From the UHGV virus genome UHGV-0099607: a DNA stretch of 15,515 nucleotides. The stretch is one strand, 5' to 3'. Position numbers: made by a program. This document shows positions 6,001 to 9,000 of this stretch, in pieces (within the stretch, counting starts at the first letter, position 1; the number at the start of each line of letters is the position of its first letter). Source of the stretch: a virus.

Positions 6001-9000
6001 AATCGTTTTACCTGCACCGTCCACCACGATCCCCTCCCGGGTCAGCGTCACAGACTGCCCCTGATCGTCATAGACAGCCACCTCACCCGTCTGCAGCCCT
6101 TTCAGGCGGTAGCGCCGGTCCGACACCGTAACAACCACCGCATGAGAACGGTCGCTATAGGTGTCGTAGGACAACCCGATAGCATCCGCCAGCTCTGCTG
6201 GCGTGGTCACCGGTGCGTCACTTTTTCGTTGAAATAATCCCGAAAAGAACACTATTTACCTCCGCCGACAGACGACTGTGTACGGTCGAGATATCGCGCC
6301 ACCAGCCACGACCAGAACAGACACAACGCCCCGGCAACAACAAACCCCGCCGGGGGATAAATCAGCCAGGCACCATACGCCAGCAAAAGCGCCCCCAGCA
6401 CGCCCACCAGAGGCGCGAGAATCAGCATGATCATAATTACCTCAGTTAAAGCGAGCGGATCCCATAGGACTCAATGTGGTCAGACAGCGTGTCTTCTTTC
6501 TCGTACAGCATGGCTCTGCCAACCGCCATAATCAGCGCAACTGCACCATCGATTTTGTTTTCCGCCTGCTCTTTGACGGGCTTCACCACATCATCGTTAC
6601 CCGGAATGGTTTTGCCGACCACGTTGCCGATACACCAGGTCATGATGGGATTGCCATCATGATGAAAGCGCCCCGATTCAATTGCCGCTTCCAGCTCTTT
6701 CATCGGGTCGGACATGTTGGTGTAGTTCTGAATGATAGTGATGGGGTTCAGGTCTTCATCAGCAAGGTCATGTGACAACCCGGTCGCCCCGAAGGGGTCG
6801 ATGGGTGACTCACTGACCGGGCTGATTTTGTTCGCCGCTTTGGCCTCCTCGAGGATGTAGCGATAATCCACCTCCGCACCATCGGTAACGGTCAGAACGC
6901 CCATTTCCACCCATTTCTGAAAGCGTTCGGCTGTCCGTCGATCTTCATTTTTCTCGACGCTGTACACCGTGTCATACGGTACCCAGAAACGCGGGGCCAC
7001 ACTGTAGTAATGCGTTTTACCGTCAATCTCGCGGGTATAAAGTCGCGCCATGCTGTTCATATCCAGTTTACGCGCCAGGTCAAAGGCCAGAATGCACGGC
7101 TGCCCCTCGAATTGCTCAAGAGTCAGTGATTTATCCTCGCAGCTCTGCCAGCTCACCAGGTTGAAATACGCCGAACGCGCCGACACCCAGATATTGAGGT
7201 GTTTTGTTTTAAAGACGTTTGCCAGACGGGCGTTATTTTTCGCACGCTGTTGCTGACTTAACAAAAACTCACGGTAAACCGACACTCCGATATTCGGGTT
7301 GGCTTTTTCCAGCACCTGTGGGTTGGTCCAGTCGTCACCTTCGTCAACGGTATAGATGATCCCGAACAGTTCATCGTTGGGTACCGAACCGTTGAGCATC
7401 TCGATAACTTCCCGCCGTTTGTCGTAGCACGGCCCCTCAATGTTGTACCCGGCAGTAGTAATGGCCCACATCAGTGGCTGACGTCGCGCCCCCATCCCGG
7501 TAAGCATTGTGGTATAAAGCGCATCGGTGGCATGCTCGTGATATTCATCAACCACGGCACAGTGGGGTGATGAACCATCACCTGGGTTGCCGATCAGCGG
7601 TTCAAACCGCGCGCCATCCTCCGGACGGTTCATGTTTGAGGCGTTAACCTCAATCCCGAACGCTTCCGTCAGCATGGGTGTGCGTTTACACATCAGTCGT
7701 GCCGGGCGAAAGACTTCCCACGCCTGTTTCTCTGTCGTGGCACCGGAATACACTTCCGCGCCAAACTCGTTATCACAGGCAAAACAATACAGGGCAACAC
7801 CGGCAGAGATTGCTGATTTGCCGTTCTTACGGGGGATTTCGGTGTACACCTCCCGGAAGCGGCGCAACCGGGTGCCTTTATTGACCCAGCCAAACGCACA
7901 GCAGATCACAAATAGCTGCCACGGCTCCAGCGTGATGGGCATCCGTTTGAATGCCCACTCCCCCTTGGTGTGCGGCAACAGCTGAATAAATTTCGCGGCC
8001 CGTTCAGCCAGGTCCTTGTCGAAGCGGTAACGAAACGACTTACTTTTTTCCGCCATCAGGTCATCAAGATGGCGCTGGCAGGCCTGAATCACAAACTGGC
8101 AGGCAACAATCTTTCCGCGCACGACATCCCGGGCATACTGATTTGCAGCATTTACGTTGGGGTAAGATTTCCGGCTCATGATTCGATGATTTTCAGAAAC
8201 GGGTTAGTGGCTTTCTTCTTCCCCGCCAGGCCAATCAGACGCTGGCGGCTGCTGGGGTCGAGTCCGAGCATTGCCCCCGTACTGCTCATCTCGGACTCCT
8301 GTTCTTTTTTGGCAGTCAGCTCCGGATTTTTGACCATACCGCCCATTGCACCGGTGATGGTGTTGCCCTGTCTGGCAATATTTTTCACGGCACGTCGCCA
8401 GAACTCGTAGGCCACGCACCACCGCTCAAGCACCGCAAGGTCAGTCACGCACAGCAGGCCCTGACCGCAGAGTTCTTTAGTTGTCAGTTGCCACATGATC
8501 GTAGCGAGAGGGAGATCTTCTTCAGCGAACCACTCCGGTGGCTCAACACCTTTGATGGGCGTAAAAACAGGTTCATCTTTGTTCAGGGCTCGCTTGCCGG
8601 GATTTCCGGCCAGCGCCTTGCGCGCCGTTGGCTTGGGGCGACGCCCGGAACGCCCCGTCGTTCCAGTCATATGCGGCACTCCTGGTTAAATTTCATTTTT
8701 CGCGGGTATAAAAAAACGATGGGGCGGGCAGTCCGGAAGACGTCAGGTCACAGGGATTTGACCCGCCCCTCCCCTCAGACAGTTGAGAATTATTATCACT
8801 TCAGCCGTTCACGGGCCGTCTTCGCCTTATGACACGGCCAGCACAGACTCTGCAGATTACAGTCGGCATCAGTGCCGCCATGCGCTTTAGGGATGATGTG
8901 GTCAACGGCTTTCGCCTCACGCACCACACCGGCACGCAGACATAACTGACACAGGCCTTTGTCACGCTTCAGGACACGCGCGCGGATACTGTCCCACTTC

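Follow-up and report, generated by a model that had tools for sequence, protein, structure and literature searches.

Portal–baseplate V fusion in a doubly deleted, gtrV-carrying prophage of the SfV type

Introduction

A 15,515-nucleotide stretch of the virus genome UHGV-0099607 (hereafter the window) raises the question of how a terminase gene came to stand beside baseplate genes with no head or tail-shaft genes between them. A sequence-only reading of the window placed this junction at 6252–6448 and, pointing to a similar remnant in the e14 element of Escherichia coli K-12, suggested that it may be a recurrent or ancestral architecture rather than recent decay. Among its closest relatives are the complete, infectious Shigella serotype-converting phages SfV, SfII, SfI and SfIV, with which the element is collinear in the parts it retains. 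Clusters of gtr genes on cryptic prophages without structural genes are already known in S. flexneri (PMC5596473). Here, we conclude with high confidence that the window is part of a doubly deleted, gtrV-carrying SfV-type prophage, that the deletion is recent and belongs to one rare lineage, and that the likeness to e14 reflects convergent decay.

Results and discussion

Identity of the element and its packaging module

The prophage belongs to the lambdoid SfV/SfII/SfI/e14 family, and the carrier chromosome is that of Escherichia/Shigella. The features of the window are listed in Table 1. Because gtrA-gtrB-gtrV is present, the element is a remnant of an SfV-type serotype-converting prophage; gtrV is 97.6% identical to that of phage SfV, gtrA/B are 98.8% identical to those of SfII, and the public collection has 94 indexed blocks with the exact GtrV protein. 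The cluster lies beside a thrW-type att core (ATTCGTAATGCGAAGG...GGCACCA) located ~200 nt past window base 1 in the parent contig (L006). This core, just outside the window, is that of attL in the Sf phages integrating at thrW, and a CP4-like island is also found in the context of the window and parent contig. The integrase was not seen in the window or the parent contig, which end short of the integrase side of the prophage. Identity to the Sf phages is 96–98% from cos through HNH, TerS, TerL and gp3 (YmfR) to the start of the portal gene, and from the 3' end of V through gp46, J, gp48, fibre and Tfa to gtr. The tRNA-Asn/tRNA-Thr pair downstream of Q and the lambda-like early region resemble those of SfI (PMC3636060). 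The gtrABV serotype-conversion cargo is probably the part still in use.

Table 1 Features of the window.
Feature	Position	Strand	Remarks
gtrA-gtrB-gtrV, O-antigen glucosylation cargo	50..2582	+	120, 307 and 417 aa; intact
Tail fibre assembly protein Tfa (Caudo_TAP)	2704..3207	-	
Short tail fibre, Gp53-like C-terminal domain	3116..3766	-	Intact
Mu gp48/YmfQ-family baseplate gene	3770..4354	-	Intact
Baseplate J/gp47 gene (Baseplate_J)	4345..5403	-	Intact
GP46-family baseplate gene	5390..5818	-	Intact
Baseplate gene V (Mu gp45-like), 3' remnant	5815..6155	-	Residues 71–182 and native stop
Deletion junction 1 (SfII 14588 / 2640)	6155..6156		~11,947 bp gone
Portal gene, 5' remnant	6156..6252	-	GTG start, codons 1–32, first base of codon 33
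ymfR, two-helix membrane protein	6252..6434	-	60 aa; usual occupant of the terL–portal interval
Terminase large subunit TerL	6446..8179	-	Full length; 577 aa; ATPase and nuclease domains
Terminase small subunit TerS, P27/Terminase_4	8176..8679	-	Full length; Pfam; 164 aa from ATG at 8670
cos cohesive-end sequence TGCCCGCCCC	8721..8730	-	Intact, after cTTCCGGAC; sequence read
HNH endonuclease gene, packaging module	8796..9146	-	Pfam HNH; 116 aa as called in relatives
Cro(1–28)::Q(32–207), second in-frame chimera	11842..12456	-	Product of deletion 2

The packaging module typical of SfV/SfII/SfI-type phages (HNH–cos–TerS of the P27 family–TerL–60-aa gp3/YmfR) was found. The HNH gene has 91% DNA identity to SfII_58, and the cos sequence, defined for SfI/SfV previously (PMC3636060), is the same in 29 related loci. 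In agreement with the sequence-only reading, TerS and TerL are full length, with their Pfam domains and with 97.6% and 98.1% identity to SfII, respectively, across the entire length. As was also described, TerL is followed after an 11-nt gap (6435–6445) by a 60-aa membrane ORF with two hydrophobic segments. Its proposed relation to YmfR was confirmed: it is identical to E. coli K-12 YmfR at 60 of 60 residues and 100% identical to SfII gp3. YmfR is common to the whole phage family (its sequence has 51,229 indexed blocks in the collection), so that its presence marks the family at large as well as e14. Neither YmfR nor the 145-aa chimera described below matched an NCBIfam or Pfam entry.

Junction 1 and the portal'–'V chimera

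Junction 1 (CTACGACACCTATAGCGACCGTTCTCAT) was located at single-base resolution by comparison with SfII and closer relatives. There is no exact microhomology at the join, and base 6156 is the exact start of every portal-side alignment. The junction is located ~100 nt outside the interval where it had been placed, 6252–6448, which instead holds the intact ymfR and the TerL–ymfR spacer as in complete phages. In a protein comparison, residues 1–32 of the 145-aa ORF at 5815–6252 match the portal protein and residues 34–145 match V residues 71–182. The ORF is an in-frame fusion in which portal nt 97 (SfII 2640) is joined to V nt 209 (SfII 14588). It had been read as a V-like gene with a GTG start overlapping the stop of the 60-aa ORF. 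The overlap is real, with one base shared between the GTG and the TAG stop, but the gene is a portal'–'V hybrid, and the annotation 'baseplate V-like' is corrected to that effect. The chimera takes its GTG, its GGAGG ribosome-binding site and its coupling to the 60-aa ORF from the portal gene, and it is linked to the GP46-family gene by an ATGA overlap. The earlier description of intact, coupled flanks is therefore accurate, but the flanks are not evidence of conserved design, because they were inherited from both parent genes and the deletion is recent.

The Gp45 N-terminal (OB-fold) domain PF06890, which intact SfII V matches at residues 17–84 (E = 3e-24), had no match in the 145-aa ORF; most of this domain is gone from the V remnant. 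The portal domain PF04860, spanning residues 47–373 of the SfII portal protein, is missing as well, since the hybrid has residues 1–32 only. Lacking both domains, the hybrid is most likely non-functional.

The structure is best explained by a single non-homologous deletion of ~11.95 kb running from portal codon 33 through V codon 70. Lost with the remaining portal gene were the genes for the prohead protease, major capsid protein, connectors, neck and tail terminator, those for the sheath, tube, chaperone, tape measure, DNA-circularization protein and hub, and V codons 1–70. The portal–V join is in frame, by chance or otherwise, and the 145-aa ORF uses the portal start signals, the V stop and the V coupling to gp46.

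Missing genes and the second deletion

All 24 SfII morphogenesis proteins were searched against the 15.5-kb window by tblastn (E ≤ 0.01). The window gave no match for the protease, capsid, gp7, both connectors, neck, tail terminator and gp12, nor for the sheath, tube, assembly chaperone, tape measure, DNA-circularization protein and hub. The sequence-only reading had named a portal or capsid gene in the interval, or the missing genes at another place in the element, as the finding that would speak against it; in the window, the SfII structural proteins recovered portal residues 1–32 only. The reported absence of head and tail-shaft genes thus holds from the protease to the hub, but the first 32 codons of the portal gene remain (6156–6252). 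The distal order gp46-like, J, gp48-like, tail fibre and Tfa was borne out by GP46, Baseplate_J, Mu Gp48, Gp53-like fibre and Caudo_TAP matches. Since the complete virion module (HK97-like head; Mu-like sheath, tube, tape measure and hub) had no tblastn match in the window, the element is a defective derivative and not a functional member of the SfV type. The sheath, tube, tape measure and hub of an R-type tailocin are equally absent from the window. By gene content, the element is unable to build virions; another prophage in the host may supply head genes in trans.

Deletion 2 has its junction at 12372/12373 with TA microhomology and removed ~6.9 kb containing cII and the replication and nin genes, leaving Q without its first 31 residues in the Cro'–'Q chimera. 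No replication genes were found in the window or the parent contig. Compared with the Sf phages, the element is without SfII 2641–14587 (portal remainder to V codon 70) and without the cro-to-Q interval, and the loss of both precludes particle formation and replication. An intermediate with just one of the two deletions was not found, and both chimeric proteins are confined to the same three datasets. The genes that would make up a lysis/packaging cassette are present, namely a cI-like repressor, Cro'–'Q, holin, endolysin, Rz, HNH, cos, TerS and TerL.

Distribution and age of junction 1

The same junction, which the sequence-only reading proposed to look for in other genomes, was present in 0 of 5,426 complete E. 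coli genomes (231-nt probe), and an exact 28-mer had 0 matches in the GTDB species representatives and the JGI metagenomes. The chimera protein occurs only in three assemblies, namely ENA ERZ1303376 (whose contig recurs in three further samples), ERZ27272224 and Logan ERR1190541. A metagenome-assembled contig matches the window at 100% identity, as would be expected if junction 1 were an assembly artefact in a chimeric contig. This explanation is barely credible, however, since the junction was assembled independently in the three datasets, whose contig names (NODE_..., k119_..., Logan) point to different assembly pipelines, and the two parent sequences have no k-mer in common at the join by which a de Bruijn assembler might have been misled.

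The order TerL–YmfR–intact portal was observed in 1,091 of 1,389 matching E. coli genomes. For the identical TerL protein the public collection has 691 indexed blocks, and those with the 24 longest contigs were examined; all 10 places shown have this order in apparently complete prophages, and 9 of the 10 places shown with identical YmfR have it as well. By these comparisons, TerL–YmfR–intact portal is the ancestral order and by far the commonest one. In relatives that share the GtrV protein, 99.9% identity to the window extends to base 6155, beyond which V, the hub and the tape measure are intact; one such undeleted relative, which lies in the same chromosomal setting, has 4 mismatches in 6,155 nt. 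The identity of TerL to that of complete prophages likewise speaks for a recent event. Because junction 1 is rare and undeleted relatives match the window at 99.9% as far as the breakpoint, it is recent and lineage-specific, and the suggestion of an ancestral junction is not upheld.

Comparison with e14 and other relatives

The comparison with e14 as an analogous remnant was correct. The e14 element of K-12 (ymfN/aaaE-ymfR-beeE-jayE-ymfQ-stfP-tfaP) is a member of the same phage family, and the shared parts have 96–97% DNA identity to SfII. Like the present element, it has a terminase gene, ymfR and a 5' portal fragment followed by distal baseplate, fibre and Tfa genes, and also a second deletion, which removed replication and late-regulation genes and created the chimeric ORF ymfN. 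Base-level mapping nevertheless ruled out that junction 1 is the e14 junction (beeE/jayE), which is not found here. In e14, portal nt ~408 (SfII 2951) is joined out of frame to baseplate J (SfII 15611), and V and gp46 are missing, whereas in the present element portal nt 97 is joined to V in frame. The TerL of e14 is N-terminally truncated and its TerS, HNH, cos and lysis genes are gone, while all of these are intact here. e14 sits at icd with pin (pinE), mcrA and lit, none of which marks the present element with its gtrABV and thrW-type att core. The e14 junction was found in 284 of the 5,426 genomes and junction 1 in none. The resemblance is one of shared family ancestry and independent convergent decay, not of a shared junction.

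Large head-to-baseplate deletions with terminase and distal tail genes kept are also present in APEC E123, CP52E, CB209 and GCA_012658225 (endpoints portal 2952–hub 13860; sheath 9278–V 14500; TerL 2272–sheath 7880; capsid 5354–~11944). These amount to at least four further deletions in relatives, with endpoints all different; that of APEC E123 was found in 1 genome. The word recurrent is thus apt in that independent deletions repeatedly gutted this phage family, but not in the sense of a junction shared with e14. The repeated origin of e14-like architectures by independent deletions is useful to models of prophage decay. Cargo was likewise kept and structural genes lost in gtr-bearing cryptic prophages of S. 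flexneri (for example in strain Y394, PMC5596473), but such remnants were described as heavily fragmented (PMC5596473), whereas the present element has two clean deletions and its other genes are intact.

Alternative interpretations

A terminase–YmfR–baseplate architecture that is ancestral or recurrent by design and common to e14 would agree with the same gene family order and identical YmfR in e14, and with the several relatives that are without head and/or tail genes yet have terminase and distal baseplate/fibre genes. It is highly improbable and has largely been refuted already: every junction differs at the nucleotide level, an intact YmfR–portal arrangement is the rule in relatives, junction 1 is missing from the E. 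coli genomes and both large collections, and the undeleted relatives are nearly identical up to the breakpoint. Also very unlikely, if slightly less so, is a domesticated functional module, such as an SOS-inducible lysis/packaging cassette, a helper-dependent satellite or a donor of baseplate/fibre genes to superinfecting relatives. That every retained ORF is intact and both deletions are in frame could hint at selection; cos, HNH, TerS and TerL together make a full set for the initiation of packaging, and the two fusions keep one continuous potential transcription unit. The in-frame joins and intact ORFs carry no statistical weight for selection, however, because divergence since the event is almost zero, too small to show purifying selection. 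Moreover, no replication genes are left, the hybrid V is without its N-terminal domain and Q is truncated, the lineage is very rare, and, of the hallmarks of satellites, neither a replication module nor capsid-size redirection genes turned up in the window or its parent contig. As a deletion remnant the element matters little, being another gutted serotype-converting/e14-type prophage whose gtrABV cargo survives.

Breakpoint motifs

The element is a case of ordinary prophage decay except for one short motif at all four breakpoints. Specifically, the breakpoints of deletions 1 and 2 all adjoin CCGGAAA-type motifs pointing into the lost DNA. The parent's only two copies of TACCGGAAAG flank the ends of the retained 6.2-kb packaging-plus-lysis segment, and a TTCCGG core is located 2 nt from the cos nick of the phage with matching polarity. 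The CCGGAAA motif is at none of the deletion ends of APEC E123, CP52E, CB209 and GCA_012658225, and the inverted-repeat pattern was not found flanking the retained segment of e14. Conservative mechanisms (Int at secondary att sites, CCGG sticky-end ligation and gyrase subunit exchange) were ruled out, since no CCGG copy is kept at either junction. Type I-E CRISPR self-targeting was considered from the AAG PAM beside both breakpoints and rejected, as the adjoining sequences differ at seed positions.

It is unlikely, though less so than the interpretations weighed above, that both deletions are scars of one sequence-directed event with a nuclease cutting at cos-like half-sites. The prophage terminase/HNH or another site-specific nuclease would cut such half-sites in an abortive induction, after which unprotected fragments would be degraded and protected ends rejoined. 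If true, this would be a self-inflicted disarming route for cos prophages, and with pseudo-site cutting by terminase or another nuclease at the motif, large deletions that inactivate prophages would have a concrete mechanism amenable to test. The candidate sites for pseudo-cos cutting are TACCGGAAAG, CATCCGGAAAC and the cos flank.

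Gene content of the element

At the left end of the window lie gtrA, gtrB and a 417-aa gene whose DNA is 97.6% identical to SfV gtrV, which makes the element an SfV-type serotype-converting prophage. The morphogenesis module is encoded entirely on the minus strand and is that of the SfV/SfII/SfI/e14 family, which is covered in PMC3636060. The gene content was checked by tblastn of all 24 morphogenesis proteins of the complete phage SfII against the entire window. As the sequence-only reading had claimed, the head and tail-shaft genes were not found and the flanking genes were full length. 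No matches in the window were obtained for the prohead protease, major capsid protein, gp7, both head-tail connectors, neck, tail terminator, gp12, sheath, tube, chaperone, tape measure, DNA-circularization protein and hub. The match of the portal protein was limited to its first residues, and that of V (a Mu gp45-like baseplate protein) to residues 61-182. The 60-aa ORF, raised earlier as a possible YmfR homologue, is identical to K-12 YmfR at 60/60 residues.

Between the Rz-like and HNH genes are two small genes that were found in some relatives only (L025 and L027), and the pair may be a moron. The early-left region (N, sieB, ral, cIII and kil) is lambda-like. On the parent contig beyond window base 1, a thrW-type att core ~200 nt left of the window (L006 15900-16000) marks the prophage end, where no integrase was found. 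This end is adjoined by a CP4-like island containing CbtA/CbeA toxin-antitoxin, RadC, antirestriction, YfjT and other genes (L009 1-8300).

Table. Positions of features in the window and of deletions in related prophages.
Feature	Position	Strand	Remark
gtrA, gtrB, 417-aa gtrV-like gene	left end of window	plus	
Tail-fibre assembly gene (Tfa)	2704-3207	minus	full-length SfII match
Gp53-like tail fibre	3116-3766	minus	full-length SfII match
Mu Gp48/YmfQ	3770-4354	minus	full-length SfII match
Baseplate_J	4345-5403	minus	full-length SfII match
GP46-family gene	5390-5818	minus	full-length SfII match; ATGA overlap with 145-aa ORF
145-aa ORF	5815-6252	minus	GTG start overlaps preceding TAG by one base
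60-aa ORF (gp3/YmfR)	6252-6434	minus	full-length SfII match
Spacer, TerL to 60-aa ORF		minus	11 nt
TerL	6446-8179	minus	577 aa; full-length SfII match
TerS	8176-8679	minus	full-length SfII match
cos	8721-8730	minus	TGCCCGCCCC
HNH endonuclease	8796-9146	minus	first of module in transcription order
67-aa gene	9212-9415	minus	without family
124-aa gene	9533-9907	minus	DUF6979
tRNA-Thr(UGU)	11412-11487	minus	between Q and holin gene
tRNA-Asn(GUU)	11493-11567	minus	between Q and holin gene
204-aa Cro'-'Q ORF	11842-12456	minus	75 nt from repressor gene
cI-like repressor	12526-13227	plus	
lambda cIII thermoregulator	15288-15346	plus	Rfam, 88.5 bits; at cIII gene start
Breakpoint sites, window	6153-6158; 12370-12375		
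Breakpoint sites, parent-like prophage (L002)	4683-4692; 11401-11410; 17842-17851; 24767-24775		
APEC E123 deletion	SfII 2952 (portal) to 13860 (hub)		1 genome
CP52E deletion	SfII 9278 (sheath) to 14500 (V)		
CB209 deletion	SfII 2272 (TerL) to 7880 (sheath)		
GCA_012658225 deletion	SfII 5354 (capsid) to about 11944		

Structure of the portal'-'V junction

DNA alignments with SfII, 10 complete prophages encoding an identical TerL and 5 gtrV prophages concur in placing junction 1 at 6155/6156, with portal-type sequence from ymfR down to 6156 and V-type sequence from 6155 on. The interval 6252-6448, to which the junction had been assigned from the sequence alone, consists of ymfR and the spacer in the same arrangement as in complete phages. 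The window reads GAACGGTCGC/TATAGGTG (the slash marks the join), the V parent GAACGGTCGC/CATCCGG and the portal parent CTTTCCGG/TATAGGTG; comparison of the window with both parents revealed no exact microhomology. The missing segment (deletion 1) corresponds to SfII 2641-14587 (11,947 bp).

The 145-aa ORF had been taken for a baseplate V-like gene, and sequence comparison identified it instead as an in-frame chimera, in which the first 32 residues come from the portal N-terminus and V residues 71-182 supply residues 34-145. The GTG start, GGAGG ribosome-binding site and ymfR coupling derive from the portal gene; V contributes the stop codon and, through the ATGA overlap, the link to gp46. Of the intact parent proteins, the chimera lacks the portal domain (residues 47-373) and the greater part of the Gp45 N-terminal domain (V residues 17-84), and it has no Pfam matches. 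We infer that the portal'-'V hybrid is non-functional.

Rarity and age of the deletion

The suggestion that the junction may be ancestral was contradicted by its distribution. Intact TerL-YmfR-portal is the normal order, present in 1,091 of the 1,389 E. coli genomes matching a YmfR-portal probe, at 10/10 places shown for the identical TerL and at 9/10 shown for the identical YmfR (the exception is e14). A 231-nt probe for junction 1 was contiguous in 0 of 5,426 complete E. coli genomes, and its exact 28-mer was not found in GTDB species representatives or JGI metagenome contigs. The chimeric protein is recorded only in ENA ERZ1303376, ERZ27272224 and Logan ERR1190541; the window is 100% identical to the ERZ1303376 contig, which is also in three further samples. 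Against an assembly artefact stand the three independent assemblies and the lack of any k-mer common to both parents at the join. Undeleted relatives that encode the identical GtrV show 4-7 substitutions against window 1-6155 and, past 6155, run on into complete genes for V, hub, DNA circularization and tape measure; one of them also adjoins the CbtA/CbeA island. Deletion 1 is therefore recent and specific to this lineage, an ordinary prophage deletion of a well-known kind. Cryptic prophages that carry gtr clusters but no structural genes were already known from S. flexneri (PMC5596473).

The likeness to a YmfR-containing remnant in e14, the cryptic prophage of E. coli K-12, was confirmed, and the two belong to the same phage family. 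In e14, SfII 2951 (portal nt ~408) is fused out of frame to SfII 15611, a position within J; this junction occurs in 284 of the 5,426 genomes, and many of the 284 are laboratory derivatives of K-12. Because the deletion endpoints of the relatives differ, the e14-like look is the product of repeated independent deletions and not a common or ancestral junction.

The cro'-'Q deletion

Directly downstream of the repressor-controlled promoter region, the 204-aa ORF begins with Cro residues 1-28 and continues in the same frame with Q residues 32-207, with TA microhomology at junction 2 (12372/12373). This deletion of ~6.9 kb covers the remainder of cro, cII, the replication genes, the nin region and the start of Q, and the element is thus without replication genes and the native Q N-terminus. 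Junction 2 was present in 0 of 5,426 E. coli genomes, and its only occurrences are in the three datasets that also contain junction 1. The repressor and the full packaging-initiation set are retained, as are the holin, endolysin and Rz genes, with lengths equal to those in relatives. The same tRNA-Asn/tRNA-Thr pair was reported for phage SfI.

Sequence motif at the breakpoints

A CCGGAAA-type motif abuts 4/4 breakpoints, each copy lying in the lost DNA and facing inward. In window orientation, the V side reads GGTCGC/CAT-CCGGAAAC, the portal side CTTTCCGG/TATAGG, the Q side CAGTA/CCGGAAAG and the cro side, a degenerate 7/9 copy, TGTCCGA(TA)/GCTCC. The 32-kb CP52E parent-like prophage has exactly two copies of TACCGGAAAG, at the portal and Q breakpoints, which form a 10-bp inverted repeat (18/23 extended) bracketing the retained 6.2-kb segment. 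All motif statistics are post hoc: a flush match of at least 10 nt from four random breakpoints arose in about 3 of 10,000 simulated trials (~3e-4), and the chance of CCGGAAA within 0-3 nt at three of four random oriented breakpoints is ~6e-10, or ~1e-5 once corrected for all 7-mers. CCGGAAA copies within the retained DNA were unused and have different flanking bases, and the motif is lacking in the five other deletion variants examined. The motif common to the four breakpoints is the sole aspect repaying further work.

A CCGG copy is left at neither junction, which excludes conservative site-specific recombination, ligation of sticky ends and subunit exchange by gyrase. Replication might instead slip across a stem whose two strands are the inverted arms and whose base carries the direct repeats AT..AT and TA..TA, as in models of the Glickman-Ripley type. 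Alternatively, a nuclease would cut at the motif, the unprotected fragments would be lost and the remaining ends joined. The cos nick flank, cTTCCGGAC/TGCCCGCCCC (8721-8740, minus), bears TTCCGG 2 nt from the nick. This core equals that at the breakpoints with matching polarity: the retained DNA corresponds to the side of cos held by terminase. A 6-mer of this kind would lie near a cos nick with a probability of ~0.01, as estimated from motif frequency; the likeness favours the nuclease model as a lead, not a finding. The cos sequence, HNH, TerS and TerL are all intact, and therefore a complete packaging-initiation module survives.

In-frame fusions account for 4/6 mapped deletion junctions in the phage family (both window junctions, e14 ymfN and APEC E123 portal'-'hub), an excess that is not significant with one in three expected by chance (binomial p ~0.1). 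The e14 and APEC E123 deletions have one portal-side endpoint at a GGTACC site (SfII 2951/2952) and different right endpoints (J versus hub), with microhomologies of GGTA (L003, e14, 10636-10639) and TGGTAC (L001, APEC E123, 7479-7484). This common endpoint, GGTA/CCGAAG, resembles the breakpoint motif and may reflect either a site prone to breakage or chance.
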